64,000 nucleotides of DNA from Chthoniobacteraceae bacterium (GTDB lineage Bacteria; Verrucomicrobiota; Verrucomicrobiia; Chthoniobacterales; Chthoniobacteraceae), in NCBI GenBank assembly GCA_037190965.1, contig JBBCKI010000029.1, forward strand, positions 131,784-195,783, given 5' to 3'. The translations under genes and the position numbers were made by a program. The notes under the pieces are model-generated. The model ran no database searches. It was not told the origin of the DNA and worked only from the letters and a program-made list of their open reading frames with translations. Numbering within the stretch: the stretch's first letter is position 1; each line of letters starts with the position of its first letter. Of the stretch, positions 2,001-35,928 are shown piece by piece.

Positions 2001-2774
2001 TCACGTGTCCCTGATCCTTGGCAGTTGCCCAAGCGTCAATCCTCCATCGACAACGATCACCTGCCCGGTGATATAGGAAGATGCCGGGGCGCAAAGAAAA
2101 GCTGCGGTACCTCCACAGTCCTCGGGGGTTCCAATACGGCCCAGTGCGATCTTTCTCTCCAGCGCTTCACGAAGTCCCGGGGTTCTGTTAAGTGTCTTCT
2201 CGGCGGCGGAAGAGGGCGTCTGGATAAAGCCTGGCGCGATGCCATTGACCCGTATGCCATACTCGGCCAGCGACAGCGCCATGCTGCGCGTCATCATGAC
2301 CAGGGCTCCCTTCGATGTATCATAGGCGGTGGAATCGAATTCGGCCTGAAAGCCGTTGGTGGAACAGGTAATGACGACCGCTCCGCTACGCCTCAAAGAG
2401 ACAAGCCGGGAGGCGAATTCCTTGACAAGAAAATAGGTGGACTCGACATTCAGACGCATGGTTTTGTCCCAGCGTTCGTGGGACATTTCCAGGAGTGGCA
2501 CATCGAAAAAACCGCCTGCGTTGCCGATGAGCAAATCGAGACCCGGGCATGCGGAGAAGGCAGCATCCAGAAGGCTGTTTACTCCACCTACAGCCAGTAG
2601 ATCATGCCGGAAATAGGGATACTTCCCGAGATCTGCGTCGGATGGCTTTTCATCCAAACCGTGCAGCAGAACATCTGCTCCCGCCCGGACCAGAGCAGTT
2701 GCGATGCTTTGTCCGATGCCTCGAGACGAGCCGGTGATAAGCGCCGAGTGACCGCATAGCGAAAAATCAGACAT
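2001..2774 (-). CDS. SDR family NAD(P)-dependent oxidoreductase
   Basis: [11 protein letters not shown], YxxSK (YDTSK), IRVNGIAPG and [12 protein letters not shown] motifs. Confidence 0.95.
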
Positions 2775-2797
2775 GGGAAACAGGCGGCGCGCGTGAA

Positions 2798-4084
2798 TCA
2801 GAGGTGAGTACTGAAGAATTCCAGCGCGCGTTTTTGCATCGCCTTGTTGAACTCGTGCGGCGCGTCAAAGGTCAAGCTCCCGAGGGTGTGCGGACTTCCA
2901 GCCGTCTGCCAGGCGCGCCTTAAGGAGAGATGCGCTGCCGCCGCTCCGTGGGGTTCCATGAGGATGTCATTCCATCCGCTGATGGCCAGGAAAGGTTTGG
3001 GAGCAGCAGCAATGGGGATGTCGATCATATCAAAATTCCGGTACAAGCCGTCGGGGATCGCGAAGAATCCCAGGGAGTGAGGAAGGTTGTAATCGATGAT
3101 GCCGTCCAGTGTGCTGATCCAGCAGGCACTGGCGGCGGCGCGAATGCGGTCGTCGAGCGCGGAGAGATAGTTTGCCCGGAACGAGCCGAAAGAAAGGCCA
3201 ACGCAACCGATGCGTTCCACCTCCACATCGTCTCGGCTGACCATGTATTCGACGGTACGTAGATCGTCTGTCGCTGTCACGGCGGCGATTGAAAGGCCTA
3301 CTGCTCCGAGGACTCGAGCCGCTTCTCCGAATTCCGTTTGAAATATTTTTATCGATAACGCCTCTGCCTCGGTGGGGCTCAGGCAATTTCGAAGTTCGTC
3401 AAAGTCATCGCGATTTTGAGCGGCAAACTTGGTGCGTCTTCCAAAGCCCAGCGCATCGATCGCGATGCAGAGATAACCAGCCCGGGCGAACTCAGCCAGA
3501 AGACTGCGGCCCTCGTAACACTCCTGGCGATACTCTGTGAGGTAGGCCGGTTCTCCCGGATGATGCAGGAGTTTTTCTTTGCCGAATAGTGCGAGTGAAC
3601 CGAGGCAGTGAAGAAGGACAAGAGCCGGATGCTTCTTGCGGCCATTCTTCGGGATGGTGACAATTGCCGTCGTGCGGAACGGAGGGGTGAGTGTAATTTC
3701 GACGTGTTCTTCCCAAAAGCCGTCGTGGTCCCACGTTTGTTTGATCTCGGGAGCGATTGGAGCTTCAAGGGCGCCGGGGACCACAAGCGCCCCCCGCAAA
3801 ATCTCAAGAAAGCCTTCCTTCCACTCGCGAAAGGGGAGCTCCGGGTTGTGGTGCCAAGATGTGACGTTGTGCGTTTTACAGCGATTTTGCAACGAAACGA
3901 AAGCATCAAGTTCCGCGCCTGCGCTCGACCGGCGCGGAAAGTTACTCCGAAGTTTCGCGAGAAGCTCTTCTTCGGGCGACCAAAACGGGAGATTGGCTGC
4001 CCATTGGGGGCGATGCCCGGGTTTCCCTGAAGAATGCGGAGTTTCGCTGTCAGGAGAGGGCGAAATCTGAAGCGGAAAAGACAT
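2798..4084 (-). CDS. Alpha/beta hydrolase (dienelactone hydrolase/esterase-like)
   Basis: [15 protein letters not shown], nucleophile elbow [11 protein letters not shown]-terminal APHEF. Start set at ATG 4084 because the longer ORF would overlap the divergent promoter and gene. Confidence 0.85.
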
Positions 4085-4098
4085 GTTTGGGTTTCGTA

Positions 4099-4112
4099 TA
4101 GAATCGTTTCTA
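4099..4112. promoter_or_regulatory. Candidate LacI operator TAGAATCGTTTCTA
   Basis: 14-bp near-palindrome with central CG, 15 bp upstream of the hydrolase start; the same consensus recurs at 5421 and 14094. Confidence 0.7.
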
Positions 4113-4166
4113 GTTCGATTGCAACTTTTTTCGACAAAATCGGCGGGGGGGCTTCCTGCGGTATGC

Positions 4167-4195
4167 TTGACAGCTTCTAGTAACGTACTTAATCT
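4167..4195 (+). promoter_or_regulatory. Sigma70-type promoter of the LacI gene, with an overlapping degenerate operator
   Basis: TTGACA(4167-4172)-17 bp-TAATCT(4190-4195); TAGTAACGTACTTA at 4178-4191 resembles the operator consensus. Confidence 0.65.
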
Positions 4196-4204
4196 GAGGC
4201 TTTC

Positions 4205-5329
4205 ATGATTAGCCAAAGGAAAATCGCAGAGAGCCTCGGAATGCCCACATCGACCGTTGCAAACATTCTCAACGGCACTCCCTACTACAAAAAGGAGACT
4301 CGCGACCGCGTCCTCAAGGCGGCTGCCGAGTTGGGCTATCAGCGAAATCGAGCTTCAATAGCGATTAGGAAGGGCCGCAGTAACCTGGTGGGGGTGATCC
4401 ACTTTGGTTCGGCCTACGAGACGGCTCATCGAGGCATTTATTTCCTGATCGAGGCGCTCAAGGGCTATGGGTACGACTATGTTGTTGCCGACCAGCGCTG
4501 GCACGCAGGCAACGTCCAATGGATGCTGAACGAAATGATTCAGGCACGGGTGGAGGGGGTGATCCTCATGGGCAATGGAACCCGGACTGAGGCATTCAGT
4601 CCTGCTTCGTTGGCGACACTGGAGCGTGCCAGCATTCCGGTTGTTTCCCTTTATGGCGATGACTATCTGGATGTGCCTCTGGTGGGGGATAGTGCGAAAT
4701 CAAGCTTCTATGCAATGGCCCGCCATCTTCAATCTGTCGGCCATCGCAGTATCTTGTTGCTTTCGTGTCCGTCGAACGAGCGGTCCACGATCGGACGGAT
4801 CGAGGGATTCGAGCAAGCAATGAAGGGGGAAGGGGCGTTTTTCGTATTGGACGAGGAGACCTTTAGCCGCAAATGGCCCAGACTGAGGCGGGAGCATCGC
4901 GACAGCTCAATCGGCGTCGCCATTCGCATGAGTAGTCAGCAAGACTTTTTTAAGGCGTGCAACGAGTTTAGTAAACGGTTGCTCGCCTCCGCGGCGCTGC
5001 CGGACGCGATTATGTGCGCCAATGACCGGGCGGCTTACAGCGTCTTCGATGCCGCGCATGAGTTGCGCGTGCGTATTCCTGAAGACGTAGCGGTGGTCGG
5101 CGCCGATGACGAATCGATCGGGAATCTCTCGATGTTCCGCCTCACTACAATCCGAATGGACATCGCCCGTTCTTCTCAAGCTGCTGTCGATATGTTGATG
5201 GAGCGGCTTAAAAATGGCGGAATTGCGAAACGAGAAGTTTCTTTCCCGGCGGAGCTTGTTCTGCGGCAGTCTTGCGGCCGGATGATCGGCCCAGGAGAGG
5301 AGCGGGAGCTTGTGATCAGGATTCAATAG
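4205..5329 (+). CDS. LacI-family transcriptional regulator
   Basis: N-terminal HTH (ISQRKIAESLGMPTSTVANILNG...TRDRVLKAAAELGY) and C-terminal IPEDVAVVGADD...LTTIR...ELVLRQSC. Confidence 0.95.
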   Translation: MISQRKIAESLGMPTSTVANILNGTPYYKKETRDRVLKAAAELGYQRNRASIAIRKGRSNLVGVIHFGSAYETAHRGIYFLIEALKGYGYDYVVADQRWHAGNVQWMLNEMIQARVEGVILMGNGTRTEAFSPASLATLERASIPVVSLYGDDYLDVPLVGDSAKSSFYAMARHLQSVGHRSILLLSCPSNERSTIGRIEGFEQAMKGEGAFFVLDEETFSRKWPRLRREHRDSSIGVAIRMSSQQDFFKACNEFSKRLLASAALPDAIMCANDRAAYSVFDAAHELRVRIPEDVAVVGADDESIGNLSMFRLTTIRMDIARSSQAAVDMLMERLKNGGIAKREVSFPAELVLRQSCGRMIGPGEERELVIRIQ

Positions 5330-5420
5330 CGATCAGAAGTCAGTAGCCCATTCAGGAAGCTCCGGTTAGCGCTAGTTAAAAAATTCAGAAATGTGTGGAC
5401 GGATGAATTTCTAGAAGATA

Positions 5421-5434
5421 TAGAGACGTCTCTA
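5421..5434. promoter_or_regulatory. Candidate LacI operator TAGAGACGTCTCTA (perfect palindrome)
   Basis: Perfect 14-bp palindrome ending 15 bp before the PEP-CTERM gene ATG. Confidence 0.75.
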
Positions 5435-5449
5435 AATTGATTCATTACT

Positions 5450-7156
5450 ATGAACAGACGCATTATTGCTGGTTTAGTGGTGTTGCTGGGAGTCGCGGCG
5501 AATGGAAAAGCGGCTACGCTCTATTGGTGGCCAGGCAACGCTGGAGCAGGACTGGGTGGGAATGGCACTTGGAATACTTCCGTTGCCAATTGGTCGACCT
5601 CTGACACAGGCAAAGTGGCATCCGCCACGGTTCCGGGGAGTGGGGACACTGCGGTCTTTGGAGGAACAGCGGGAGCTCTCAATTATATTTCGGGGCAGTC
5701 GGTAGGAAATTTTCGCGTAATGACCAGTGGTTATGTCTTTACGCTGGGAGCCGGCACGACGACCTTGACCGTGGGAGAGTTCTCCGGCGCGGGACTCGCC
5801 GACACCACCATTCGGGCGCAGGGGGCGAGTATGTCGAGCACGACGCTTTCGCTGACAGTGACTGGAACCACAAGCTATACGGGGACCCTTTCTGACGGCG
5901 CTCTCGGAGCCCCATTGGTCCTGAGGAAACTTGGGAACGGCCTGCTGGATCTTTCCTCCGCCACGCTTTCCCAAACCGGTGCTACCTATGTATCTGGTGG
6001 GATTCTGCGGGTGAAAGAGGGAACCGGTACGGCGGGTTCCCTGCCGACCTCACAAACCCTGCAGCTGGGCACCGGGGGAGAGAGCGGAATCTTGGAAGTC
6101 ATTGGGAATGGGGTGTCATCTTCCTTTACCCGCAAGATTACCACTTCGACCGCCACGGCCAATGGTGTCTGGCTGGGTACCACCGCCAGTTCCGTAGTGG
6201 GCTTTGGCGCGCTTCAGGGGGACCTTACGATAAATCTGGACAACGATGGCAGCAACAAGAGCTGGGGAGCCACTGGATTTGGCGCCGGAACGATAATTCT
6301 TGGAACCAAAGCCTCCACAGGAAAGGTCACGCTGGTCAATCCCCTGACACTCATTGCCAATGGGCCATCGGTTGCCAAGATTCAGGTCGTGCATGGGGAG
6401 AACAGCACGCAGAAAGTCGATGCGGAGCTTCAGGGCGCCTTGCAGATCAGCGGAACGGATTCCGGTGGAGGAGCAATCGCCAATCGGGTGCTGGAGAAAA
6501 GTGGCGACGGCACGCTTGTGCTTTCCGGTACATCCAATGCCTTCAATGGTCGGCTCCATGTCAGCGCGGGTGCGTTGTTGATAACCGGCAGGTTTATCTC
6601 GAACACGAGCAATGCCAATGCGCTCACCGTTGATGCCGGAGCAACTCTCGGAGGTTCGGGGACGGTTGCGTTTACCAACGCAAGCGCCAGGATCAAAGTC
6701 GACGGCACATTGCAGGCGGGCTTGGGAGCCGCGAATACGGACTTCGATGCCGGCTATAGTTTTAAGACCCTGACCCTCAGTCAGTCGTACGTGGTCATGG
6801 GTGCGGATTCCGTCCTGGCTTTTGGCTTGGGTTCTACCTCCGAACTGCACGACACCATTGCGACCATCAATGGTGGAATATGGGAGTTCGGTAGTGAACA
6901 GAAAATTAAATTCTATAACGCGGGCCTGACCACGGTTGGTATTACCTATACTATTATGACTGGACTGTCAGCCAATCCTTTGCCCGCCTCCTGGCAGGTT
7001 TATGATAGCGATGGTATTAATGGCAGCTTCAGCTTTGCGGATGGCGCGATATCGTTCACCGTTTCTCAGATACCCGAGCCGCACGTCGTGACGCTGGCGA
7101 TCGTCGCAGGCGCCGCATTATTGGTTCTTCCAAGGAGTCGACGCAGATCCTGTTAG
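5450..7156 (+). CDS. PEP-CTERM surface protein with autotransporter-associated beta-strand repeats
   Basis: Signal peptide; G/T/S-rich body with LRKLGNGLLDL and LEKSGDGTLVL repeats; C-terminal IPEP-hydrophobic-RRR sorting signal. Confidence 0.92.
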   Translation: MNRRIIAGLVVLLGVAANGKAATLYWWPGNAGAGLGGNGTWNTSVANWSTSDTGKVASATVPGSGDTAVFGGTAGALNYISGQSVGNFRVMTSGYVFTLGAGTTTLTVGEFSGAGLADTTIRAQGASMSSTTLSLTVTGTTSYTGTLSDGALGAPLVLRKLGNGLLDLSSATLSQTGATYVSGGILRVKEGTGTAGSLPTSQTLQLGTGGESGILEVIGNGVSSSFTRKITTSTATANGVWLGTTASSVVGFGALQGDLTINLDNDGSNKSWGATGFGAGTIILGTKASTGKVTLVNPLTLIANGPSVAKIQVVHGENSTQKVDAELQGALQISGTDSGGGAIANRVLEKSGDGTLVLSGTSNAFNGRLHVSAGALLITGRFISNTSNANALTVDAGATLGGSGTVAFTNASARIKVDGTLQAGLGAANTDFDAGYSFKTLTLSQSYVVMGADSVLAFGLGSTSELHDTIATINGGIWEFGSEQKIKFYNAGLTTVGITYTIMTGLSANPLPASWQVYDSDGINGSFSFADGAISFTVSQIPEPHVVTLAIVAGAALLVLPRSRRRSC

Positions 7157-7334
7157 GAAACCGCCCGTCCTGTTTGTTCGAAAATTCCTGGTGCTGCTTT
7201 GCAAAGAAAGCAACGGGAAGAGATGCACCTTCTATAGCATTTTTGAGTTATGCTATTCACATGCTTTGCACTGGCCCGTGGCGCTCGAGAATCGTTGTAA
7301 ACATCTAACTCTTCAAATCGATAGATTTCTGCCA

Positions 7335-10300
7335 ATGAATTGTTCCCTCCTTCAGAAAATTGGCGTCTTGATGGCTGTCTTGCCGGGCTTCATCGGCACA
7401 GCTTTCGCCGAGACGCTTCCCTTCACCGCAGTGGATCCGGCCGGGAAGACGGCATCCATTGTGATCGATCCTTCGCTTGACTCCGGACGAAATCCGATCG
7501 ATTGGACCCAGTTGGAAAAGCAGGTGTTGGTTCCCTCGCCCTCTCGGGCGAGGCCATTGATGTACGCGGTCCACTACTTGCGCGAGGCCGTGCGGCGAAT
7601 GACCGGGAAAGAATTGCCGATTGAGGAGGGGGGAAATGCTTCCAAAGGCATTGTGCTCATGCGCATGGAAGATGCTCCGGATGAGATCAAAAACGATGAA
7701 GCCGTCCAAAAGGCGCTGAGGAATAACGGGCAGGACGCGTATAACAACGTTGAAGCTTACTACTTGCGCACGGAAGCCCAGCGCGTGCTTGTCGTCGCCA
7801 ACACATGGGACGGTATTCTCGATGGCGTGGTTGCATTGTTGGAATCGGTTGGGTATGAAACCTTGGGGCTTGGCCCCAACTGGACGCACGTACCGGATTT
7901 CCAGAAACGCCCGCTCGTCTTTTCAGCGCTTGAATCGGGCCGCCCCGGCTATTACCTGCGCAATCTGTCTGTGGCCAGCGGAGCCCATATCGGGGGCGGT
8001 ACTCTCAGCCGCGGGCTCAAACTCTCGGATCCACAGGACGAAACGGTTGAACTCAGTCTTCTGAGATGGAAGATAGGAGCGCGGCTGGAGGGGCGCTCAA
8101 TGCCGATTTTCCCCGGCCACGCCCTGACACAGCTTCGCAAGGATGTCATTCAGGTCATGCGGGAGACCAAAAATCCCGACGGCTTTCTTATTGAGAAGGC
8201 CACCATCGGGCCGGAGTCATCGCGGCCTCCGGCCACCGAAGCAAACAAAGGACATTTCTGGATCAATGATGATCCCGAGGGAAGTCCGGGTGCGGGGAAA
8301 TTCTTCAGTTCAAGTGGCACAGAGTGGAAGGAGAATACCTATCGAGAAAGCGCCACCGACCTTACCCTTGACTACGTCCGCAAGATGTTTTTCGAAACGA
8401 TGAAAGTCCGGGCAGAAGAAGCATTTGCGCGGAGGCCAGATGAGATCTTTGTCTTCGGGTCAGATCCGGCGGATGGCTCGGGTCTGGGCAACCTGGGGGC
8501 TTATGCCAAAAACAAAAATTGGTATCCGGAATATCTGGCCGCCGCAGGAGTGGAATTTGGAAAGCCATATCCCTTGCATGGGGTAAAGGGACTGGACCAG
8601 CCCAAGGAAATATGGGATCCGGCGGCGGCCAGCGACACGGTTTTTGCTTTCAGCAATTGGTTGCTGCGGGAGTTTGACAAGTGGATCGATTCCCTCCCCG
8701 AGAGCGAGCATGTGACTTCCACGGGGAAATCCAAGAAAGAGCTGATCGCGTGTGGTCTTCTCAGCTATAATTATCACGACGTTCCTCCCAATTTTACGCT
8801 GGATCCGCGCATTCGCATTATGGTGGCGGGTTTCCCCAAACACCGCGGCACCGGAAAATGGAAAAATTTCAAAACGAATGAGGATATAGCCATCGCTTTT
8901 CGATCACTTCTGCCAAGGCAGCCTGCGGCGGACTACCAATATATCAGTAATTCGCGCTTTTGGGACGGCAGCCTGGCGGGTATTCGTGGGAAAGCGACGC
9001 TCGCGCCGTCAATTCAGTCATTCTATCGCTCCAGATACGACGCTGGCTTCCGCGCTTTCACGGCGGAGACAGACCTCAATTTCGGGAAACTAGGATTGTT
9101 CTATTACCTCTCGGCGAAGGCGCTCTGGAATCCCGAGATGACCCCGGAGGAACTCGATGCCATTCGCGATCGTTGGTTCCAGAGGGCCTTCGGAGCGGCG
9201 TGGAAGGAAATGAAGACCTATTACGATTTCATGAGCGCCGAGAATTTCAAGATCAGTTCCCAAAGAAACTGGTCCAGGGCAGTGCGCATGATTGACGCGG
9301 CGGACAGCATTCTTGCGACGGCAAATGAGCCGGACGCGCAACGACGGTTGGATGATCTCAAGCAATTCTGGTATTATTATTATTTGACGGCAAGTGGCCA
9401 GGCCACGCCGCAATCACGGGCGCTCAGGGAATTTATGTGGAAAGGTCAGATGTCGTACATGACATCAATGATCATGGTCCAACTCGTCGCCTTTAAGCAA
9501 AAGGATACGATTCGCATGGCGCCGCAACTGGCCGGGTCGGAATTCAATACGGGCCCCGCTCATTACACCCATGAGGAAACTCAGGAATGGTGGAAGAAGA
9601 TCTTGGATTTTTGGCCGACGATACCGGTCGCGGAGTTTTCCGAAGGAGTATTGAATAATGGGAAGAAGGCTGCGGAAGTTGATCTGAATGATCTGGTAAA
9701 GGTTTCCGAGTTTCGGGGCGAGCGGAGTTCGAATGATTTGATATACAACAGCAGTTTCGAACCGGCCTTGAACTTCCTAACCTCAGCGCAAAAGACAGGA
9801 CAGGAGATCGGCTTCATCCTCTATTGGCCATCCAATCCGGATTTCCGCTATCACAGGCCGGCATCGGTTGTTTATGGAGTCAAGCGTTGGAATTCTGCCA
9901 CGGAGGAATGGGATGATCTGGTGGATGAACTCATGACCACCGAGGATTCGAAAACAAAGGATGGTCCCGAAGGAAAGCCCCTCCAATGGGTCGAGGTTCG
10001 TTATAAGGCCCCTGAGTCGGGGACGTACCGGATTTCTGTCGGCAGGGGAGGAAGCAATGCTCACCTCACCACCCTGGATGTCGACGAAGACTTGAAAACG
10101 AACGCGGGGGAGCAGGCTCAGACCTTTAATGCTCCCGTGGGCGGTCTCGCGCAAAGCCCCGCCTGGTTTTACATCCCCAAAGGCACGAAGAGCCTCGACT
10201 TTGAGCTCCCGAGAGACGGGGTCGTTAAATTGTGTCTATATACAGGACTTCCCTCCGCAGGTATGTCGCGTTCTCGGGAGATGACCCTGGAAAAAGCAGG

Positions 10301-10478
10301 CACCCATTCCATTCCGCTCGGGCCCGAGGAGGACGGCAGCCTGGCGATGTTTGAGAATCGGGGGCCTCTCTCCTTCCCGACGCTCTACTCCGTCCCGCTT
10401 TTCTGGGCCAAATCGCCGGCCTCTCTTTTGGTTCCTCGCGCCGTTGCTGAAGCCGATAAACTCACGCCGGAGGAGTAA
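7335..10478 (+). CDS. Large secreted protein, DUF4838-like (putative carbohydrate-active)
   Basis: Signal peptide from ATG 7335; N-terminal domain (LREAVRRMTGKELPI...EAYYLR...LLESVG) like that of DUF4838/GH67-N proteins; YYLSAKALWNP motif. Confidence 0.6.
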   Translation: MNCSLLQKIGVLMAVLPGFIGTAFAETLPFTAVDPAGKTASIVIDPSLDSGRNPIDWTQLEKQVLVPSPSRARPLMYAVHYLREAVRRMTGKELPIEEGGNASKGIVLMRMEDAPDEIKNDEAVQKALRNNGQDAYNNVEAYYLRTEAQRVLVVANTWDGILDGVVALLESVGYETLGLGPNWTHVPDFQKRPLVFSALESGRPGYYLRNLSVASGAHIGGGTLSRGLKLSDPQDETVELSLLRWKIGARLEGRSMPIFPGHALTQLRKDVIQVMRETKNPDGFLIEKATIGPESSRPPATEANKGHFWINDDPEGSPGAGKFFSSSGTEWKENTYRESATDLTLDYVRKMFFETMKVRAEEAFARRPDEIFVFGSDPADGSGLGNLGAYAKNKNWYPEYLAAAGVEFGKPYPLHGVKGLDQPKEIWDPAAASDTVFAFSNWLLREFDKWIDSLPESEHVTSTGKSKKELIACGLLSYNYHDVPPNFTLDPRIRIMVAGFPKHRGTGKWKNFKTNEDIAIAFRSLLPRQPAADYQYISNSRFWDGSLAGIRGKATLAPSIQSFYRSRYDAGFRAFTAETDLNFGKLGLFYYLSAKALWNPEMTPEELDAIRDRWFQRAFGAAWKEMKTYYDFMSAENFKISSQRNWSRAVRMIDAADSILATANEPDAQRRLDDLKQFWYYYYLTASGQATPQSRALREFMWKGQMSYMTSMIMVQLVAFKQKDTIRMAPQLAGSEFNTGPAHYTHEETQEWWKKILDFWPTIPVAEFSEGVLNNGKKAAEVDLNDLVKVSEFRGERSSNDLIYNSSFEPALNFLTSAQKTGQEIGFILYWPSNPDFRYHRPASVVYGVKRWNSATEEWDDLVDELMTTEDSKTKDGPEGKPLQWVEVRYKAPESGTYRISVGRGGSNAHLTTLDVDEDLKTNAGEQAQTFNAPVGGLAQSPAWFYIPKGTKSLDFELPRDGVVKLCLYTGLPSAGMSRSREMTLEKAGTHSIPLGPEEDGSLAMFENRGPLSFPTLYSVPLFWAKSPASLLVPRAVAEADKLTPEE

Positions 10479-10531
10479 GAAAAAATGTTCGATGGTTCAA
10501 TAGTTGTACGATCACCCCGGATTTGAATCTC

Positions 10532-12856: not shown

Positions 12857-12905
12857 GATTGCAGCATGTGAAGGCGGAATTTCGAGTGGCTAACGCAAAT
12901 AGTTT

Positions 12906-14063: not shown

Positions 14064-14081
14064 ACGTTGTCGCGAAAGATC

Positions 14082-15296: not shown

Positions 15297-15325
15297 ATTG
15301 CTGAGCCGCTGAGATCAATACGAGA

Positions 15326-28011: not shown

Positions 28012-31000
28012 GGATAGACCCCCGCTTCATAGAAGTTTAGAGAGACTTTTTCGACGTTTCCCCGGCCTGCGGCGGAGTTGACCAGCTCAACTTCATTTTC
28101 TTCACCGAACTTGATCCAAGGGGTAATATTCAGATGAAAGCGAGGGCCGATCTTTTGCCAGAATCGGCTGACCCATTTCCCATTGATGACGACTCCGAGA
28201 GGGGTGCCCGTCACATCGAGGACGACCTGCTTTCCGGATTTTTCAGAGGGAATATTGATCGACCTGCGCAGTGTGAGACAGTCGTATTTCCCAGGCAGGG
28301 AAATCGGGGAGCCGTAGCGCAGAACGTCCTCGCTTGGAGACCAAAGACCGGCCAGATCGATCTGGGATTCGGGCGTCGGCCAGAACCAGAGCCAGGTGGC
28401 GCCCTTGGCTCCGGCCAGGCTGCCTTTTGCTTCGATTTCGACGGCGATTGTGTGCTCGCTGCCTGGCTTGAATCCTCCCTCCGGTTTGAAATCCAGCAGT
28501 CCTTCGCTTCCCTGATCGAGGATCAACTTGCCGTCGAGCCAGATGCGGCCTTTGTCGGCAAACGTCGGTCCAAGCCAGGAAACCAGCCAGAGGGATGGTT
28601 CACCGTTTTTCCAGGCTTCCGGGATGGTGAATTTCCGTCGAAGAACGGCGTGATTCACATCCTTTTTGTCCGGGAAGGTCCAAACGCCCATGTCGGCTTT
28701 TTCCCACGAGGAGTCATCGACGTCCGCCGCGATGAATGCGGTTGCCTGATCGTCTTCGCCGAGCGGCTTAAAGCTCCAGTCTTTGCTCAGGTCCGAGGAA
28801 AACAGATGCGGAGCCGGCGGCAGCGGAGTTGCGGGAGGGGCTTCCGTTCCGCGCCACCAGGATCGCTGAAGGTTAAACCAATCCAAAGGTGCGTCGGCGA
28901 TATGATTTCTCGGCGTGAGATAGAGGAAGGTTTCCTCTGGAGGCAGTTCGACTTTGATGCCGCCGTTATCCACGGGGATTTTTTTTCCGGAACGGAAATC
29001 GAAGGCCCATGCCGGCAAAGGGTTCGTTTGCAGTTGGAGGTCTAGCGATGCTTTGTTTTCGGTGCTCTGATTCCAGAGAACCCAGACGTCGTAGAGTCCA
29101 TTATTCGAAAGATAGTGCCGCAGGAGGACATCTTTGGTCGGGACCAATTTGGCTGGGACCGGTTGAACGTCCCGCCAGCGGAGAATGTCAATCAGCGTGG
29201 TGCGGAGCGCGTTTGTGGCGATCCGCAACGACTCCCTCGAACGGCGGACGTTGCTTTCATCGAAATCGACGCGATCCGGAATGGAATCCCCCGTGAATTT
29301 GCAGCCGATCTGCACGATGCGGCCCTTTCCAAGCTGGCGCACCCCGGCGGCGACAGAGCCGTCTTCCCAAAGGAGCAAATCCTGCGCGTCGGGAGCTTCC
29401 TTCTCGAGAGTCAGGCCGTTGGCCGCGACATTTTGCCATTCGTTGGTGAAAACCGATTGGCCTGGAGCGTTTTCCAATTTCCGGGTCTTGAGCGGATTGC
29501 CCTTCTTATCATACGAATCCACCGCCTTCACGCGATAACCTGTGAGCCGTGAAATGGGCCATGAGTCTCTGATCGCCGGGGTATGGCGTCCGGTTTGCAC
29601 GAATGTCACAAAGGTGCCGCCGGCGCGGACGTACTGCTCGATTTCGCCGACCAGCTTTTCGTTCATGATGGACGTGTTTGTATCGATGATGACCTTATAG
29701 CGGCTCGCGTCTCCCGACGCGAAGGACGACTCGGTAAGGATGTCGCTTTCATAAAGGGACCGCAGTACCGAGCGGACATTCCATGTCCAGTATCCGGAAC
29801 GAAAGTTCGTGTTATAGTCGGATCCCCAAGGATAGGCCATGAGCGCATTGACACTTGTCGAATGCAGCGCCGCAACTTCAGCCTGGGGGGAGTGGTATTT
29901 GCCGATCAGTTTGATGAGCGGAACATTTTCCTCGAAATACTTTCGAATTTCGGGCTCCCACATCACTCTGCCGATGTGGATGAAATAATCCAGCCCTTGA
30001 ATTCCCTCGGTATGGACCAGGCCGATCTTCTTTTTGAAATTCGGAAGATCTTTTGCCGGGGAGCTTGGTTCGACCGAGAATGGCAAGCCGGCACCGCGCA
30101 TGATGGATGACAGATAGTCGTTCCAGAAGGTGAGCATGTACCCCGTGTTCTTGAAGTTGCCCCCGTACTGCAACGCGAGTTTTTTAATGCCGTCGGCGTA
30201 GTAGTCGGGCGCCATGAGGTCGATCTGGCGGTCTTGATCAACGTGACGGATCATTTCCATCCCACGCCGGGCGGCATTGATCCGCGTCCATTGAATCCAT
30301 TCCGCGAAGTCCACCCAACGCATGTTCCCTCCGGGTCCGAAGTCGGGATACTGACGGGGGGAATCTGGTGAGAGATAGACGCGGTAGGCCAGGAAGCCTT
30401 TTGGGAGGCGGATCGCCAATTGATTGGAGCCGGGACGCAAATGCTTGGTAACCTCAACCCCCTCCCAGTGATGGATCGTGTGTTCAAGGGGCGTCTCACT
30501 GACTTTCTGGCCATTGACGGCGATGGTGACCGATTCCGGAGTGACGCGATTCAAGCTCCAGACGTACAGCCATACACGGGGATTTTTCGCGAGCCACTGG
30601 GCGGGCACTTCGATCTTCTGGCGAAATACGGCGGGCCGCTTTTCCAGGAACATGATCCGGTCATGGCCCGGTGCCAGGATGGTCGGCCATGACGAATCGT
30701 CGAACGATTCCGAGTACCAATCTTCCGGTGCCTTCTCGGTCGCGATCGCCCTGATTCGTAGGGTCTTTTCCATCTCACGCTTTGTCAGTGAGGTGCCGCT
30801 GAACTCCTCCCAGCCCACATGCCAATCCCCCGTCAAATCGAGTGCCTGGGGCCCCCATCCGGAAAACGAGGCAACTTCAGGAACCCGGACTTCGTCCCAG
30901 GAAGAATAGTTGCCCTGCCACGAAGCGTTCAGGGCTTTGGTGTTTTCATATCTTTCCTGGAGAAACTTACGGAAGGAGGCGTCCGCGACCGGGCCATATT

Positions 31001-32048
31001 CGGTAAACATGTCCTGGTTACCCGCGCGAAGTTCACCATGGGGTTCCAGAAAAGTGGTGACGTTCGGAAAAGCTGCCATCCGTCGGACGACGCCCTGCAA
31101 GACGCCAAGTTCAGCGTCTTTTCCGTCTGTCGAGCTCCATGAGAATGTTCCAATGCCGCCTTTTGCGTCTGAAGCATTGTGCATGTTGCCCACAAATTGA
31201 GGCATGGATTGGTTCGTTTCAGCGCGAAATCGATTGAGCAGCCACGGAGGGGCAGCGAACTGACCCGCGGCCAAATTGATGCCGATGGGCAGCTTGCGAG
31301 CGGCGGCCTCTTTTGCCGCCCATTCTTCCCAGACTCCATTGTCGAGCCCTTCGGCGGTATCGATACGATTTCCGACCCCATAAATAATGAAACCGGCTTC
31401 TCCATTCTTTTGCGCGAATTCGAATTCCTTGGAGATGTCGTAATTTTTGGCAACCTCCGGGTCTTTGGGAAGATCCCAGGCACGGTAGTAGAATCGAAAG
31501 CCGTATTTGTCCCACCGATCCAGCCACATGGGAACTTCCTTTTCCGCGCGGGATGACGCGCGAGAGAGGTCGCCCGTGAAATGATTCGTGACGAAGTTGC
31601 GCCAATCCTCCTGAGTGGCGGCTGCAGGGATGAATAGATTCGCGCCTGATCGAAGGGCTGCCACAACACCCTGACCCTCGATCTCCAACGCATCGATCTT
31701 GACGCTACCCACCTCCAGAGAGACTAGTTCCGCGCCGGGCAGGACTTGCAGGTCGGAAAGAAATTTCGCCTGAGTCAGCTTGGCTTTTTCCTCATCCTCG
31801 CAGGTGATCCGAAGGATCGATCCGGTCTTGTCGTCAGTCCAACTGGCGCCAGATATCCTGCCATAACCGCGGAGGGAAATCTCCTTCAGGGGTTCAATGG
31901 CCCGCAGGTCCGAGCCCGATACCTCCACGGGGGAGGACTTTCCCCACGCCGATTGAGCAGGAAGGGAGGCAGAGGCCAGAGAGATACCACAGAGAAGGGC
32001 CGCCGTAGGGAAAGAGAAAGGCATAGCAATGGATATGCTTGGTCTCAC
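28008..32048 (-). CDS. Large secreted GH42-like (beta-galactosidase-type) multidomain protein
   Basis: Signal peptide; FRKFLQERYENTKALNASW GH42-like segment; trimerisation-like domain (EQYVRAGGTFV...LGKGRIV); several beta-sandwich domains. Confidence 0.65.
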   Translation of the reverse strand: MRPSISIAMPFSFPTAALLCGISLASASLPAQSAWGKSSPVEVSGSDLRAIEPLKEISLRGYGRISGASWTDDKTGSILRITCEDEEKAKLTQAKFLSDLQVLPGAELVSLEVGSVKIDALEIEGQGVVAALRSGANLFIPAAATQEDWRNFVTNHFTGDLSRASSRAEKEVPMWLDRWDKYGFRFYYRAWDLPKDPEVAKNYDISKEFEFAQKNGEAGFIIYGVGNRIDTAEGLDNGVWEEWAAKEAAARKLPIGINLAAGQFAAPPWLLNRFRAETNQSMPQFVGNMHNASDAKGGIGTFSWSSTDGKDAELGVLQGVVRRMAAFPNVTTFLEPHGELRAGNQDMFTEYGPVADASFRKFLQERYENTKALNASWQGNYSSWDEVRVPEVASFSGWGPQALDLTGDWHVGWEEFSGTSLTKREMEKTLRIRAIATEKAPEDWYSESFDDSSWPTILAPGHDRIMFLEKRPAVFRQKIEVPAQWLAKNPRVWLYVWSLNRVTPESVTIAVNGQKVSETPLEHTIHHWEGVEVTKHLRPGSNQLAIRLPKGFLAYRVYLSPDSPRQYPDFGPGGNMRWVDFAEWIQWTRINAARRGMEMIRHVDQDRQIDLMAPDYYADGIKKLALQYGGNFKNTGYMLTFWNDYLSSIMRGAGLPFSVEPSSPAKDLPNFKKKIGLVHTEGIQGLDYFIHIGRVMWEPEIRKYFEENVPLIKLIGKYHSPQAEVAALHSTSVNALMAYPWGSDYNTNFRSGYWTWNVRSVLRSLYESDILTESSFASGDASRYKVIIDTNTSIMNEKLVGEIEQYVRAGGTFVTFVQTGRHTPAIRDSWPISRLTGYRVKAVDSYDKKGNPLKTRKLENAPGQSVFTNEWQNVAANGLTLEKEAPDAQDLLLWEDGSVAAGVRQLGKGRIVQIGCKFTGDSIPDRVDFDESNVRRSRESLRIATNALRTTLIDILRWRDVQPVPAKLVPTKDVLLRHYLSNNGLYDVWVLWNQSTENKASLDLQLQTNPLPAWAFDFRSGKKIPVDNGGIKVELPPEETFLYLTPRNHIADAPLDWFNLQRSWWRGTEAPPATPLPPAPHLFSSDLSKDWSFKPLGEDDQATAFIAADVDDSSWEKADMGVWTFPDKKDVNHAVLRRKFTIPEAWKNGEPSLWLVSWLGPTFADKGRIWLDGKLILDQGSEGLLDFKPEGGFKPGSEHTIAVEIEAKGSLAGAKGATWLWFWPTPESQIDLAGLWSPSEDVLRYGSPISLPGKYDCLTLRRSINIPSEKSGKQVVLDVTGTPLGVVINGKWVSRFWQKIGPRFHLNITPWIKFGEENEVELVNSAAGRGNVEKVSLNFYEAGVYP

Positions 32049-32079: not shown

Positions 32080-33798
32080 TTAGGCTTGGCGCCGTTTCCG
32101 CCGGACGAGGAAGAAGCCCAGGCCCAAGCCCAAGAAGAGGCAGGTGCCGGGCTCGGGAACCGCTATTAACTGGACGGTGAGGGATTTGCCGGTCGAATCC
32201 CAGATGTACCCATTGCCGCCGCCGTAGGAGGTATCCAATCCGTAGCCGACGGGGGTATTGAAGACGAAGGCGAGATCGACGCCTCCGGTCCAGGTTCCCG
32301 TGCCGGCGAACAGGCTGTAGGGAGTGCCGGTGAGCACGGTTCCCAGCGTGGTAAGATTAAAAGTGATGGTCTTGTCCAGGCTCAGAGCTCCGCTGCCGAA
32401 GTTAACTTTGTCGATGGAGGCTCCGTCCAATTGAAAATCAAAGGTGGCACCGTTGTTAGCGGTCAGACCGCCGCTGAGGGTTAGCGTGCCAATACCCCCG
32501 GTATCGCCGGGGGCGAAATGGGTGTTACCGGTGGCACCCGTGGCGGTGACATGGCCGGTGGCGAAGCCGGTTCCTCCCAAGGTGGCCCCGCCGGCCACCT
32601 GAATCACGCCTGTGCCCGTGGCTGAATTGCTGGTATTGGCCAAGAGGAGGGTGCCCGCGGAAACCTTGGTGCCGCCATCATAGGTATTGCCCGTGGCGCG
32701 GGTGAAACGGACGATGCCCGCGCCGATTTTTTCCACGGCGCCGCTCCCGGTGCCATCCTTAATCTCGCCGCTGAAATCGACCCGCCCGCCCGCGACGGCG
32801 GTCACTTGCAGGGTCAGGTTGTTCGTGCTGTTGGCAAAATCCATGGCTCCGGAAAAAACCGAGACATCGGCGGTGTTGCCTCCCACCACGCGATTGAGCA
32901 GCGCATTGCCGCGATCCAGGGAGACTGAATTTGCCACGGTCATCGACCCGCTGGTGAGCAGTCGGGCGGATTCGCCGGCTGCGCCCCCACCGTTGAGATC
33001 GGATCCCACGCGAACCTGGCCGGAGGAGAAGGCCTGGCCGTTTTCGAGCAGCACTGTGCCTTTGACGATCTGAGCCCTGGTGCCAGCCACTAAGTTGCTG
33101 CTACCGCTCATGATGTACGTGGCGGAATCAGCCGAGATGGCATCTTGCCCAAAAATCACTGAAGTGCTGGCCGAACCGACCGAGACGATCGAACCCCGGA
33201 AGATCAGCGTTCCTCCGGCGGCCTGGCTGAAACTGATAGCCTTGGTGCCAGTCCCGTTCCCCGCGGTCACGTTAATGTTTCCCGTCAGTTCCAACCGAGA
33301 CCCGGTGGCATTATTAATGTAATAATAAGTGTTGGAGCTGGTCGCGCCGGTCAGCGTGAGGTCGATGGCATTGGCGACGGTGATGTCGCCGGTGCCGCCG
33401 GTATATTCGATGAGGGTTTTGCTGGCGTTGGTGACGCCGGTCTGGGTGATGGTGGAACCTGTCAGGGAATAGCCGCCGGCGGTGAAGGTAAGTTTATCTG
33501 CCGTGACGCCTCCGCTGACCGTGATCGTGCCACCCGTTCCGCTGAAGATGGCTATATCGTTGGATGCGTTGTTCCAGGCTTGCAGGGTACCGAGACCGGT
33601 GCTGCCGGTATTCCAGAGAGTAGCCCCGCCGTTTTGCCAGGTGCCGGCGCCGCCGAGGCCTGGCGAGCCTTCATTGGCGTCCCAATAAAGCGAACTGGCC
33701 CAAGCGCCGGACGAGGCGATGGCAAAGAGCGAGGCGGCCAGCAGCGACCGGCCGCTGAAAGGGGTCTTCGAAGCGAAAGCGCGGGGGGGATTTGTCAT
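32080..33798 (-). CDS. PEP-CTERM surface protein with autotransporter-associated beta-strand repeats
   Basis: Signal peptide; VEKIGAGIVRF...NTYDGGTKVSAGTL repeat; C-terminal VPEPGTCLFLGLGLGFFLVRRKRR. Confidence 0.93.
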   Translation of the reverse strand: MTNPPRAFASKTPFSGRSLLAASLFAIASSGAWASSLYWDANEGSPGLGGAGTWQNGGATLWNTGSTGLGTLQAWNNASNDIAIFSGTGGTITVSGGVTADKLTFTAGGYSLTGSTITQTGVTNASKTLIEYTGGTGDITVANAIDLTLTGATSSNTYYYINNATGSRLELTGNINVTAGNGTGTKAISFSQAAGGTLIFRGSIVSVGSASTSVIFGQDAISADSATYIMSGSSNLVAGTRAQIVKGTVLLENGQAFSSGQVRVGSDLNGGGAAGESARLLTSGSMTVANSVSLDRGNALLNRVVGGNTADVSVFSGAMDFANSTNNLTLQVTAVAGGRVDFSGEIKDGTGSGAVEKIGAGIVRFTRATGNTYDGGTKVSAGTLLLANTSNSATGTGVIQVAGGATLGGTGFATGHVTATGATGNTHFAPGDTGGIGTLTLSGGLTANNGATFDFQLDGASIDKVNFGSGALSLDKTITFNLTTLGTVLTGTPYSLFAGTGTWTGGVDLAFVFNTPVGYGLDTSYGGGNGYIWDSTGKSLTVQLIAVPEPGTCLFLGLGLGFFLVRRKRRQA

Positions 33799-33801
33799 TT
33801 T

Positions 33802-34941
33802 CTACGAGGTTTTTGGGTTGGAATGGCGGGCCCCGGATGGGCCGGTCTTTTCGATCAGTTGATAGGGCTGCACAATGCGGGAGAATGGTTCTCCGGAGAC
33901 TTGGCGCTCGATTTGGGTGATCAGGGCCTCGGCAATGGCCTTTTCGCTAGTGACGATCTGCGAGACGCTAAAGGGACAGAGATAGTCGCGGCTCTCATTG
34001 CGATGAAGGACGAGTTTAAGATCCGAGGGAACCCGCACGCCTCGCTCGAGGATCGCCATCAGTGTTCCTTCCACGGTAATGTCAGGCTCGACCAGCAGGC
34101 CATCAGGACGATCTTTCAGATTCCATAAGGCATGGAACTCGTCGTAGCCAAACTTGGTGAGGGCAAAGCCACTTAACGTGGTGTTGCGCGGAATGCGAAT
34201 CCAGGAATTTTTGATCTTCAAGCCGTAATGGGAGGCCATTTCGATCAAAGAATCATAATAGTCTTCGTAAACCTGCGAGGCGGGGTGGACCGTAATCAAG
34301 CCAAGAGACTTGCAGCCCGACCTGGCGAGCCTTTGCATGCCGAGCTCAAACATTTGCCGGCTATCCGTCCCAACACTATAGGGAAGATTTTTGGGCGTGA
34401 TCGCCGCCAGCGGCAAAGGAAGCGATTGGGCCCACTTCAGGGTATTGCCCGGAGCGTCGACCAGGATCAAGCCCTGCATCTCACGGCGCTGGGCGGCCCG
34501 CTCAAGCGAGCCCCACATCGTCCCTGAATCGGTGGCGGAGCGGGGATCCATCCATGCGTGCACACCGATTCCCCGGCGCTCCATGGCCTTCTTCACCTCC
34601 ACAAGAACGCTACGGGAGAACCATTTATTGGGATCTGAAAGGGATTCAAGTTTTGCGTAGAGACCCACGGTGTGCAATCGGGCGATCTCTTCAGCCACGA
34701 AAGTTCCCTTGCCATGCCTCCGGATCAGCTTTCGGGTTTCCACCAGGTCAGCCAGGGCGGAATGCACGATCGTCGCGCCAACACCCCATTTCGATGACAA
34801 CTCGCGGGTGGACGGGATCTCGGTGCCCGGGGTGAGCCGGCCCGTATTGATAAGCTCCTCGACAAATTCCCGGATGCGCTGCCGGGGAAGGTCGGATTTG
34901 AGAATCTTGAGTTCGCTGAACACGGAAGTTGCGGCTGTCAT
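33802..34941 (-). CDS. GntR-HTH / LacI-type sensor hybrid transcriptional regulator
   Basis: IPSTRELSSKWGV...RRHGKGTFV HTH; C-terminal RPDGLLV...VRVPSDLKLV. Confidence 0.92.
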   Translation of the reverse strand: MTAATSVFSELKILKSDLPRQRIREFVEELINTGRLTPGTEIPSTRELSSKWGVGATIVHSALADLVETRKLIRRHGKGTFVAEEIARLHTVGLYAKLESLSDPNKWFSRSVLVEVKKAMERRGIGVHAWMDPRSATDSGTMWGSLERAAQRREMQGLILVDAPGNTLKWAQSLPLPLAAITPKNLPYSVGTDSRQMFELGMQRLARSGCKSLGLITVHPASQVYEDYYDSLIEMASHYGLKIKNSWIRIPRNTTLSGFALTKFGYDEFHALWNLKDRPDGLLVEPDITVEGTLMAILERGVRVPSDLKLVLHRNESRDYLCPFSVSQIVTSEKAIAEALITQIERQVSGEPFSRIVQPYQLIEKTGPSGARHSNPKTS

Positions 34942-34990
34942 GGCAGGGCTGAGGGAAGGAATGATGAGAGATTCGCCTGGATTGCTGAGT

Positions 34991-35011
34991 TTGTAAAGAA
35001 CAATGTGAACA
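34991..35011. promoter_or_regulatory. Candidate regulator site TTGTAAAGAACAATGTGAACA
   Basis: Near-identical to 35986-36006; GAACA direct repeat abutting a minus-strand -35-like TTTACA. Confidence 0.55.
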
Positions 35012-35073
35012 CTTGGATCACTTTGAACTCTTGGTGGACGTCTTTGTCCGTGACTTAGTGATTCTTCGTCAGA

Positions 35074-35928
35074 TCAGGGGTGTAGGGAACGCAGATGTTT
35101 GGCTAGCGATTCTTCCGGGAGCCAGCTGTCATAAAACGCCAGATTGGCCACGCTTCCCTGCCAGCCGAAGGCGGCATTATTGCCGTTCACCCCCACGTTG
35201 ATGGTGGAGACCAAGGGCTCATAACCCTCTCTGACCGAGGCGGGAACCGATACTTCGGCCACCTTCTCAAGGCCGGAGGCCCTTGTTCCCAGGCGCGCGA
35301 CAAAGGCGCGGAGCTTGCAGGTCGAATTCGATTCGAAGCGATACTGCAAGGCGAAGTAATACCAAGTGTCGCTCTCGAACGAAACGGGACTGGTGCCGCC
35401 TACCAGAACCGGCATAGCGCGAAAATCGCCGTTACTCCCCACCACCCAGGTCAGGGGTTCTCCTGACCTCTTTTGGGCTACGAACCAGCGATTGGCCGTC
35501 GACTTCTCGCTCTCGATGCTTAGTCCGGAAATAATCATCCCGGTTCTTGGCAAGTTGCTGTCCTGAAGGCGGGCAAGGAACTCCACCGTGCCTTCGCGCG
35601 GCCAACTGATAACCTTTTTACTACGCAGGCCGGATCCCTCTTTTTCCGAGGCTGGAGCGGGAATGGCGACGGCCAAACCAGAACCGGGCAAACCCTCCGC
35701 AAGCGTAGCAAAGCCGTCGCCGTTGCCCGAATAGGGCGCAAGCTCAGCCTCTTTGGAGGCATGAGGAATGACCTCGACCCGCGTGCCTGGCGAGCCCTCG
35801 AAAGCCCAGGTATAAACTAGAGACGGTTCGGCGGATTGCAGGCGCCCGAGAAGGTCTTCGGCCCGGGCCGTTCCGGTAAACAAGCTGGCGGCAAAAAAGA
35901 GCAGGGCACGAGGAAAGGACGGCTTCAT
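35074..35928 (-). CDS. Secreted LamG/concanavalin A-like domain protein
   Basis: Signal peptide; EGTVEF, TWYYFAL, WQGSVANLAFYDSWL motifs typical of LamG-like jelly-roll domains. Confidence 0.7.
   Translation of the reverse strand: MKPSFPRALLFFAASLFTGTARAEDLLGRLQSAEPSLVYTWAFEGSPGTRVEVIPHASKEAELAPYSGNGDGFATLAEGLPGSGLAVAIPAPASEKEGSGLRSKKVISWPREGTVEFLARLQDSNLPRTGMIISGLSIESEKSTANRWFVAQKRSGEPLTWVVGSNGDFRAMPVLVGGTSPVSFESDTWYYFALQYRFESNSTCKLRAFVARLGTRASGLEKVAEVSVPASVREGYEPLVSTINVGVNGNNAAFGWQGSVANLAFYDSWLPEESLAKHLRSLHP

Follow-up and report, generated by a model that had tools for sequence, protein, structure and literature searches.

In the SusC/SusD polysaccharide utilisation loci (PULs) of Bacteroidota, a regulator, surface proteins and carbohydrate-active enzymes (CAZymes) are combined in one substrate-specific locus. 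The question addressed here is how SusCD-lacking Verrucomicrobia and Planctomycetes gain access to polysaccharides. A "TonB system or extracellular digestion" was offered for these bacteria (PMC11980603), and another paper names unidentified fibres as an explanation for glycan access in Planctomycetes (PMC5394234). We analysed a stretch of 64,000 nucleotides from a Chthoniobacteraceae bacterium, called the window below (C29:131784-195783 of a 4.21-Mb genome in 73 contigs, 97% complete). The open reading frames (ORFs) of the window were listed and their proteins were scanned with Pfam and NCBIfam hidden Markov models (HMMs). Between 2001 and 35928, two modules combine a regulator, a presumed surface protein and CAZymes as a Sus PUL does, and both also carry pilin-like genes. 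Unlike Sus PULs, neither module has SusC, SusD or a TonB receptor in the Pfam scan for TonB_dep_Rec and SusD, and surface anchoring would depend on PEP-CTERM and exosortase here, as against lipoproteins in the Sus PULs. An earlier reading of the letters alone, the original prediction, had stated that this region encodes no TonB receptor, no ATP-binding cassette (ABC) or major facilitator superfamily (MFS) transporter, and no pilus ATPase, secretin or prepilin peptidase. The Pfam and NCBIfam scans of 2001-35928 confirmed this.

The pilin-like genes of module 1 (14130-19927) correspond to a set already named, the Verru_Chthon cassette (TIGR02600, TIGR02598, TIGR02599 and TIGR02596, here proteins A, B, C and D), in which the same four genes stand side by side, in multiple copies, in Verrucomicrobiota. 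No function has been assigned to these families; a link to glycan regulons and an operator are added by the present analysis. Gene order varies, being C-B-D-A in module 1 and D-B-C-A or B-C-D-A elsewhere. The GspH-I-J-K set of the type II secretion system (T2SS) likewise consists of four prepilin-type proteins, one of them large and without Glu5, and B resembles GspI. In contrast to T2SS sets, the cassettes have no accompanying genes for GspC-M, D, E or F and number about 16 sets per genome, and A has about 1200 aa, whereas the genome's own GspK proteins have 303-375 aa. Type IVa pili (T4aP) with PilY1, and competence pili, embody the same idea of a priming complex, a large ligand-binding tip protein and retraction, and PilT is present in this genome. 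Unlike PilY1, A has a pilin-like N-terminus of its own, and Pfam detected no PilY1/PilC-type tip adhesin domain among 32 A-family members.

In Verruconatronum alginivorum, according to PMC13274419, a PulG-like pseudopilin lies in an alginate-induced cluster and has 67 homologues in the genome, a pseudopilin is over-expressed on alginate, and enzyme export is proposed by the authors. The PulG-like genes there stand singly; they compare with the H-X9-DG gene of module 2 and not with a four-gene cassette. In the literature outside subscription journals and supplementary files, no text was found that names the Verru_Chthon cassette or its TIGR numbers, and none that joins Verrucomicrobia, PEP-CTERM and polysaccharide utilisation. 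A link between pseudopilins and verrucomicrobial glycoside hydrolases (GH) was found there only in the 2026 Verruconatronum paper and its preprint, and wider searches of that literature turned up nothing of relevance. Catalogues already cover the cassette families, H-X9-DG proteins and PEP-CTERM sorting; what is new is the presence of pseudopilin-like sets in glycan regulons with a defined operator. We read both modules as substrate-inducible glycan regulons, and the cassette as a minor-pseudopilin-like tip set for glycan capture or adhesion, a proposal to which we give about an even chance of being right.

On the plus strand, module 1 runs from a LacI-family regulator through a PATR protein, a relative of GH20b/DUF4838 proteins, a DUF4838 protein and a GFO/IDH/MocA oxidoreductase to the cassette (C-B-D-A) and a 504-aa gene. 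A perfect 20-base palindrome was observed 13 bp ahead of the PATR gene; its core was then searched for, and after it the degenerate form TAGANNCGNNTCTA. This form showed 3 exact matches in the window, where 0.00 were expected from 100 shuffles, and 4 matches in the entire 4.21-Mb genome, against a composition expectation of ~2.4. The three sites in the window are TAGAATCGTTTCTA at 4099-4112, in the divergent hydrolase/LacI region, TAGAGACGTCTCTA at 5421-5434, 16 bp ahead of the PATR gene, and TAGATTCGTATCTA at 14094-14107, between the GFO/IDH/MocA gene and cassette gene C. LacI-family operators are usually CG-centred palindromes, and in a scan for CG-centred 4+6+4 palindromes the TAGANNCGNNTCTA class was the rarest one having two intergenic sites at most 12 kb apart. 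The module thus presents a regulator with both helix-turn-helix (HTH) and sensor domains, together with CG-centred palindromes in promoter regions, 3 of the genome's 4. Given the three sites and their LacI-operator form, module 1 can be read as one regulon of three units, namely the hydrolase (with a short-chain dehydrogenase/reductase, SDR) and LacI genes, the PATR gene with the enzymes, and the cassette with the 504-aa gene. Because the palindrome is common to the enzyme and cassette promoter regions, the cassette is probably co-regulated with the module 1 enzymes. The prediction that the pilin-like genes belong to glycan loci is thereby supported, as it is by the tight operons of module 2 and of loci L003 and L014. 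A promoter-like site, TTGACC-18-TATGAT, lies on the plus strand at 14082-14111, its -10 hexamer overlapped by TAGATTCGTATCTA; the promoter and terminator scan of 4000-23000 gave fewer sites than shuffles, and the promoter-like class was not above chance. At the other cassette loci, a scan for clusters of operator-like palindromes with 5-base arms returned nothing intergenic, and with 4-base arms ambiguous extra classes only. The fourth copy in the genome, TAGACCCGCTTCTA, is intergenic at C63:50873, ahead of a 168-aa ORF without assigned function.

The association of cassettes with carbohydrate genes was measured across the genome. Gene calls beyond the window came from a simple greedy ORF picker and motif counts from regular expressions; the statistics rest on this one genome and 12 hand-picked foreign loci, and paralogous loci are mutually non-independent. 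TIGR02600 matched 39 stretches genome-wide, which were grouped into about 16 loci, 5 of them above the cut-off. The 15 loci other than module 1 were taken as 20-kb stretches and compared with 15 seeded-random 20-kb regions that overlap no cassette locus. All greedy-called ORFs of at least 110 aa were scanned with Pfam, at E<=1e-4 for cassette loci and E<=1e-5 for random regions (one cassette-locus match would fall away at 1e-5), and glycosyltransferases, carbohydrate-binding modules, Laminin_G_3 and generic alpha/beta hydrolases were left uncounted in both sets. GH or carbohydrate esterase (CE) matches were found at 10 of 16 cassette loci and in 3 of 15 random regions (Fisher p 0.029). The count rises to 11/16 when L009 at a contig end is included, although over 12 kb separate its matches from the cassette remnant. 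At the gene level, a hand count gave 19 matches among 196 cassette-locus proteins versus 7 among 202 random-region proteins. Two loci form tight co-directional arrays: in L003 the order is LacI, BNR_2, GH123, a 267-aa PEP-CTERM protein, D, B, C, A and SSF, and in L014 it is GH38, FAD oxidoreductase, MFS, D, B, C, A, an unassigned gene (x), GDSL, esterase and PATR.

Cassette loci of other species gave a similar picture. The 12 foreign loci, with full flanks and from different assemblies, were chosen after their regulator and PEP-CTERM tags had been viewed and so not blindly; 99 of their proteins were scanned at E<=1e-6. In 10-11 of these loci, a GH, CE or polysaccharide lyase (PL) match lay no more than about 9.5 kb from A; L040 gave no such match and L087 a GDSL match only. 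Moreover, L039 carries a regulator, a 635-aa PEP-CTERM protein, B, C, D, A and an MFS gene. These data bear on the possibility that the pilin-like sets have no tie to glycans, that they act in adhesion, motility, biofilm formation or DNA uptake, and that they stand near CAZyme genes because the genome is rich in them. GH/CE genes do occur in 3 of 15 random regions, 5-6 of the 16 cassette loci have none, and cassettes lie near regulators and PEP-CTERM genes only modestly more often than random draws would give. Against this stand the operator common to enzymes and cassette, the embedding of cassettes between transporter and GH genes in L003 and L014, and the recurrence of the association in other species. 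We regard an absence of any glycan tie as very improbable.

The other parts of the proposed design were compared by proximity, each observed count being set against 500 random draws. The genome holds 46 Peripla_BP_3 regulators, 117 PATR repeat matches, 91 ORFs with PEP-CTERM-like tails and 82 ORFs with a widened prepilin motif; 15 of the latter have H-X9-DG near the C-terminus, and 35 pilin-like ORFs are "solo", that is, more than 1.5 kb from another. A PEP-CTERM ORF lay within 1 kb of 15 of the 46 regulators (random mean 4.3, maximum 10), so that the predicted succession of regulator and PEP-CTERM gene is above chance genome-wide. A pilin-like ORF lay within 5 kb of 14 of them (random mean 6.2, maximum 16). 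Solo pilin-like ORFs were found within 5 kb of a PEP-CTERM ORF in 18 of 35 cases (random mean 6.6, maximum 15) and within 5 kb of a regulator in 11 (random mean 3.1, maximum 8). A small design recurs, consisting of a regulator, a PEP-CTERM protein of about 270 aa and an H-X9-DG prepilin of about 250 aa, as at C34:109300-111568, C68:35328-40499 and C18:50516-54395, and could represent module 2 in minimal form.

Sequence comparisons of the four cassette proteins place them near the minor pseudopilins. Protein C (14130-15296, plus strand) matches TIGR02599 with E 2e-75 and 254.3 bits against a cut-off of 256.5, its best match although slightly under, and has a GspJ-like N-terminus (NF006453 GspJ, E 4.7e-5). 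Its prepilin motif RGFSLLEV lies at ORF residue 67, and an internal in-frame TTG at 14271, leaving a 19-aa leader, is the likely start. Protein B (15326-15757, plus strand) is GspI/ComGE-like, and its best match is TIGR02598 (E 1.3e-12; 48.1 bits, slightly under the cut-off of 51.4). Protein D (15570-16307, plus strand; likely start at 15735) is GspH/ComGD-like, with TIGR02596 as its best match (E 5e-17; 62.6 bits, slightly under the cut-off of 70) and a GspH match at E 1.6e-6. The giant subunit A (16190-19927, plus strand; likely start at 16304) reaches 857.2 bits for TIGR02600 against a curated cut-off of 332.3, and its N-terminus is GspK-like (GspK E 2.3e-5). B, C and D have canonical prepilin N-termini, the cassette motifs being RGFSLLEV, RAFSLVEV and SAFTLLEL, and A has a hydrophobic N-terminus after RRG, without Glu5, as in GspK. 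Weak NCBIfam matches link C to GspJ, D to GspH/ComGD, B to ComGE and A to GspK, for the most part within the N-terminal 70-80 residues; for GspJ, GspH, ComGE and GspK these have E 1e-4 to 1e-6. By hhalign, the B family aligned with the genome's own GspI over 111 columns with a probability of 92.6%. Within A, residues 1-500 and 851-1193 are conserved, while 551-850 are variable and hold most insertions, a pattern that fits the two-block form of the TIGR02600 and phmmer matches. Searches of the PDB sequences with A and C found no relative. The atlas neighbours of A are clusters that are unnamed or called "cassette protein A", with HHH_3 in 29% of the members of one lower-ranked cluster.

The genome encodes few machines on which such sets could be assembled. 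We found 5 GspE/PilB ATPases, 4 PilT ATPases, 4 GspF/PilC platforms, 4 strong secretins and 1 weak one (one of them PilQ-type), 1 prepilin peptidase and 1 exosortase (PF09721, E 2e-49, at C42:6838-7578), and the machinery genes lie on contigs other than that of the window. A machine encoded elsewhere and shared had been predicted, and the location of these genes and their scarcity, with 4 platforms and a single prepilin peptidase against about 16 cassettes and 35 solo pilin-like genes, support it. The modules far outnumber the machines, which fits "plug-in" subunits, and a plug-in tip module on a shared machine is reasonably supported. A locus with GspF and GspG on C30 has no minor pseudopilins adjoining. 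Genes of the Amuc_1100, Amuc_1099 and Amuc_1098 families, which are Akkermansia-type pilus-like proteins and a secretin, were observed in this soil genome at C18:16500-25500 (L118).

On this basis the following mechanism is suggested. The repressor of each locus, LacI or a GntR protein with a sugar-binding domain, would control three components together. The first would be the secreted PATR beta-helix protein, whose PEP-CTERM tail would be handled by the single exosortase so that the protein is left at the cell surface. The second would comprise the secreted and cytoplasmic CAZymes, and the third a locus-specific protein set that depends on prepilin peptidase, which in module 1 would be the Verru_Chthon cassette. 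The cassette may form an alternative minor-pseudopilin initiation or tip complex, in which D would correspond to GspH, B to GspI, C to GspJ and A to a GspK-like subunit of 3-4 times the normal size. This complex would be processed by the one prepilin peptidase and, as we infer, assembled on one of the few shared T2SS or type IV pilus (T4P) platforms. A fibre capped by it would then carry the variable middle of A as a locus-specific recognition surface. The likeliest target would be a glycan, the polymer being captured, or adhered to, at the cell surface beside the PEP-CTERM protein and the secreted enzymes. Entry of the products could be left to inner-membrane transporters whose genes lie elsewhere or, as at other cassette loci, within the operon itself. 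In module 2, the solo H-X9-DG prepilin might be a simpler add-on of the same kind. The data show the gene content, the common operator motif, the spacing within operons, the copy numbers, the enrichment near GH/CE genes and the conservation in other species; that a fibre is assembled, that the complex sits at its tip, that glycans are bound and that PEP-CTERM proteins are displayed at the surface are steps that we infer.

Several observations weigh against this reading. By hhalign, C aligned with GspJ over the helix only (31 columns) and A with GspK at a probability of 11%; from these alignments, any homology of C to GspJ and of A to GspK appears confined to the N-terminal helix. The only Pfam family found in the A family was PilX_N, in 2 of 32 members. 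LacI is presumed, from the form of the sites, to bind the candidate operators. Two canonical T2SS loci have G-H-I-J-K sets of their own (GspK of 375 and 303 aa) and therefore need no cassette for their completion. Some 5-6 cassette loci have no recognisable GH/CE gene. Finally, a Peripla_BP_3 regulator lay within 10 kb of 8 of 16 cassettes (random mean 3.9, maximum 9) and a PEP-CTERM ORF within 10 kb of 10 of 16 (random mean 6.8, maximum 13). Both of these cassette links are therefore weak, and the three-part design is not claimed as general. Of the co-occurrences compared genome-wide, that of cassettes with GH/CE genes held up (10/16 vs 3/15), whereas that with PEP-CTERM genes did so poorly. 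Even the cassette loci lacking GH/CE matches carry sugar genes: GntR and GFO/IDH at L001, LacI with a PATR/PEP-CTERM protein and an unknown of 781 aa at L005, RhaA, MFS and aldo-keto reductase genes at L007, LacI and GFO/IDH at L008, and PfkB, GFO/IDH and SSF at L013.

The own tip sets of the T2SS loci also bear on the main rival, in which the cassettes and the solo H-X9-DG pseudopilins would be alternative T2SS tips that export the enzymes of their own locus, and perhaps the beta-helix protein. The cassette and pilin-like proteins match the T2SS pseudopilins GspG/H/I/J/K, each module encodes several enzymes with signal peptides, and T2SS secretins, ATPases and platforms are present in the genome. 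T2SS export of alginases beside a PulG-like gene was also suggested by the authors of PMC13274419. On the other hand, the tip sets of the two canonical T2SS loci are of ordinary size, A is 3-4 times the size of GspK, and some cassette loci contain mostly cytoplasmic catabolic enzymes (RhaA and aldo-keto reductase in L007; PfkB and GFO/IDH in L013). Moreover, we know of no T2SS that swaps its tip for each cargo. Cargo secretion is in our view unlikely. Glycan capture or adhesion is favoured because the sets are many, old and locus-specific, because the canonical T2SS loci own their tips, and because some cassette loci hold mainly cytoplasmic catabolic genes.

The original prediction, that such modules functionally replace SusCD, corresponds to another role, the import of glycans. 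In this reading B, C, D and the giant A, with its locus-specific middle domain, would form the tips of a shared retractile pilus, which would bind the cognate glycan and pull it to or through a secretin into the periplasm and so replace SusCD/TonB uptake. One TonB-dependent receptor (PF00593) was found in this 97%-complete genome and 0-10 in each of 25 relatives, the genome encodes 4 retraction ATPases of the PilT type and a PilQ-type secretin, and both modules contain cytoplasmic enzymes, so the substrate must get in. Dextran bound to pili-like fibres is described for Planctomycetes (PMC5394234), and DNA uptake by competence pili could serve as an analogue. However, oligosaccharides released by secreted enzymes could pass outer-membrane porins, and the cassette proteins resemble T2SS pseudopilins more closely than T4aP minor pilins (PilX_N in 2/32 A members, no PilY1-type domain found). 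TonB scarcity is also lineage-wide, being seen as well in relatives without an A match. Import by retraction is thus judged improbable, and capture or adhesion at the surface is preferred. The absence of a transporter, seen in both modules, did not survive as a general feature of the design: SSF or MFS genes adjoin the cassettes in L003, L013, L014 and, in another species, L039. Cassettes as stand-ins for missing transporters were accordingly rejected.

The history of the family was followed through A. Across the species collection, an alignment of five A paralogues found 506 related stretches among 542 candidates; it matched 14 of 15 genomes of the same family and, at 1e-6, 19 of the 25 relatives. 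TIGR02600 at E<=1e-20 matched none of 60 other genomes in a phylum-wide sample, with a first-look filter that may miss distant copies. The distribution of A is patchy. A phmmer search with A against 1.84 billion representatives returned 1382 proteins at E<=1e-30, and the nearest relatives of the cassette proteins are in metagenome-assembled genomes labelled Chthoniobacterales, Spartobacteria or Verrucomicrobiales. In a quick maximum-likelihood tree (the careful search was unfinished), the A paralogues of this genome interleave with those of other species, indicating that the paralogy is old; L001 sits on a long branch. The paralogous module L015 (C50) resembles module 1, with 61% identity for DUF4838 and 46, 41, 35 and 35% for A, C, B and D.

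For the question of polysaccharide access, the locus supplies parts that can be tested: a repressor with a defined operator, four pseudopilin-like genes of which one encodes a giant, variable subunit, and about 16 paralogous sets per genome, tied to different sets of enzymes. If the sets are indeed substrate-specific fibre tips, this would be a new principle of glycan recognition, and the cassettes would be markers predicting substrate-specific loci in a phylum important for carbon turnover in soil and ocean.

The remaining genes of module 1 were mostly as predicted. An SDR oxidoreductase (2001-2774, minus strand; adh_short_C2, E 8e-51) is probably co-transcribed with the upstream alpha/beta hydrolase (2798-4084, minus strand; Abhydrolase_7, E 6e-9) across a 23-bp gap; the hydrolase ORF extends to 4216, with the ATG at 4084-4082 as the likely start. 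The LacI-family regulator (4205-5329, plus strand) has a LacI HTH and Peripla_BP_3 (E 1.8e-28). The secreted PATR beta-strand-repeat protein (5450-7156, plus strand; 568 aa; PATR, E 2e-8) ends in IPEP, a hydrophobic stretch and RSRRR. A PEP-CTERM tail had been predicted in both modules; here it is PEP-CTERM-like by motif only (by eye and regular expression), with no match to the PEP-CTERM HMMs even at E<=1, whereas in module 2 it has HMM support. Two DUF4838-like proteins had also been expected. The first, a secreted 1048-aa protein (7332-10478, plus strand), is a divergent GH20b/DUF4838 relative with sub-threshold matches only (GH20b, E 3e-4; DUF4838, E 0.02). Its ORF opens at 7191 (1095 aa), pairwise BLASTP of 7191-10478 against the true DUF4838 protein gave E 0.006, and a PDB sequence search with the 1095-aa protein found no relative. 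The true one, secreted and with a beta-galactosidase-type all-beta domain, lies at 10523-12856 (plus strand; DUF4838, E 5.5e-33). It is followed by the GFO/IDH/MocA oxidoreductase (12906-14063, plus strand; Pfam and NCBIfam), in which no signal peptide was seen. The 504-aa protein (19972-21486, plus strand), without a signal peptide and starting 44 bp past A, had been called a propeller glycosidase; its BT_1020 beta-propeller match is just 20 bits, under the cut-off, and a PDB sequence search returned nothing.

Module 2 lies on the minus strand as a tight operon, its genes overlapping or separated by at most 41 bp. It begins with a regulator that joins a GntR HTH to a Peripla_BP_3 sensor (33802-34941), which 3 bp separate from the next gene; the sequence upstream of this regulator showed no palindrome. 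There follow a secreted 572-aa PATR protein with a PEP-CTERM tail (32080-33798; PF07589, and TIGR02595 with 22.2 bits against a cut-off of 16), a secreted 1346-aa GH42-like protein (28008-32048; Glyco_hydro_42M, E 3.6e-7; Glyco_hydro_42, E 7e-6) and a secreted SASA-type carbohydrate esterase (25879-28011; SASA, E 1.9e-17). The next, a 717-aa protein (23729-25882), has no signal peptide and no family match in the Pfam and NCBIfam scans, and a PDB sequence search returned nothing. The last gene (22965-23687) encodes the H-X9-DG (DUF1559-type) prepilin-like protein with a GspG N-terminus. Both hallmarks of H-X9-DG prepilins were found in it, TIGR04294 with 20.3 bits against a cut-off of 19 and N_methyl with E 7e-5; PF07596 gave 20.2 bits, below its cut-off of 23.3. 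Its atlas neighbours are N_methyl/SBP_bac_10 clusters. A secreted 284-aa protein without a family match (35074-35928, minus strand) is of uncertain membership in module 2. Between the PATR proteins of the two modules, phmmer gave no match at 1e-5 and BLASTP aligned an N-terminal stretch only (E 2e-6), suggesting a common architecture and not close kinship.

Other carbohydrate loci are found in the window, for which Rfam and tRNA scans gave no match. A third utilisation locus at 37706-52634 contains GntR (37706-38887), SASA, GDSL, a 714-aa unknown, ABC permease fusions, AXE1 and GH88; a transporter is present, and pilin-like and PEP-CTERM genes were not found in it. Its ABC importer genes (44581-47250 and 47255-49600) are unusual: one encodes an 889-aa fusion of a solute-binding domain and a BPD_transp_1 permease, the other a permease of 781 aa with a weak GH42 match in its long N-terminal part. 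A similar pair lies beside GH20 at L016:2308-6374, one of the random regions. The block at 55258-63178, for galactonate and fucose/mannose, comprises LacI, a DgoK-like kinase, a KDPG-type aldolase, a GH29 fucosidase, a GH38 mannosidase and GntR, and pilin-like and PEP-CTERM genes were not found in it either. At 205-1899, a 564-aa DUF4153 membrane protein directly follows a LacI-type regulator that runs off the window start, and could be a sugar-controlled transporter. Two further observations were made near cassettes on contig C4. A few kb from one of them lie a gene resembling a proteasome subunit and one for a protein with a UBact (prokaryotic ubiquitin-like) domain at its end (L002:16792-19606). 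Directly past cassette k1, an integrase, DUF6896, a SUKH immunity-type gene and RHS-repeat genes (L001:13599-19429) look like a mobile or polymorphic-toxin island.

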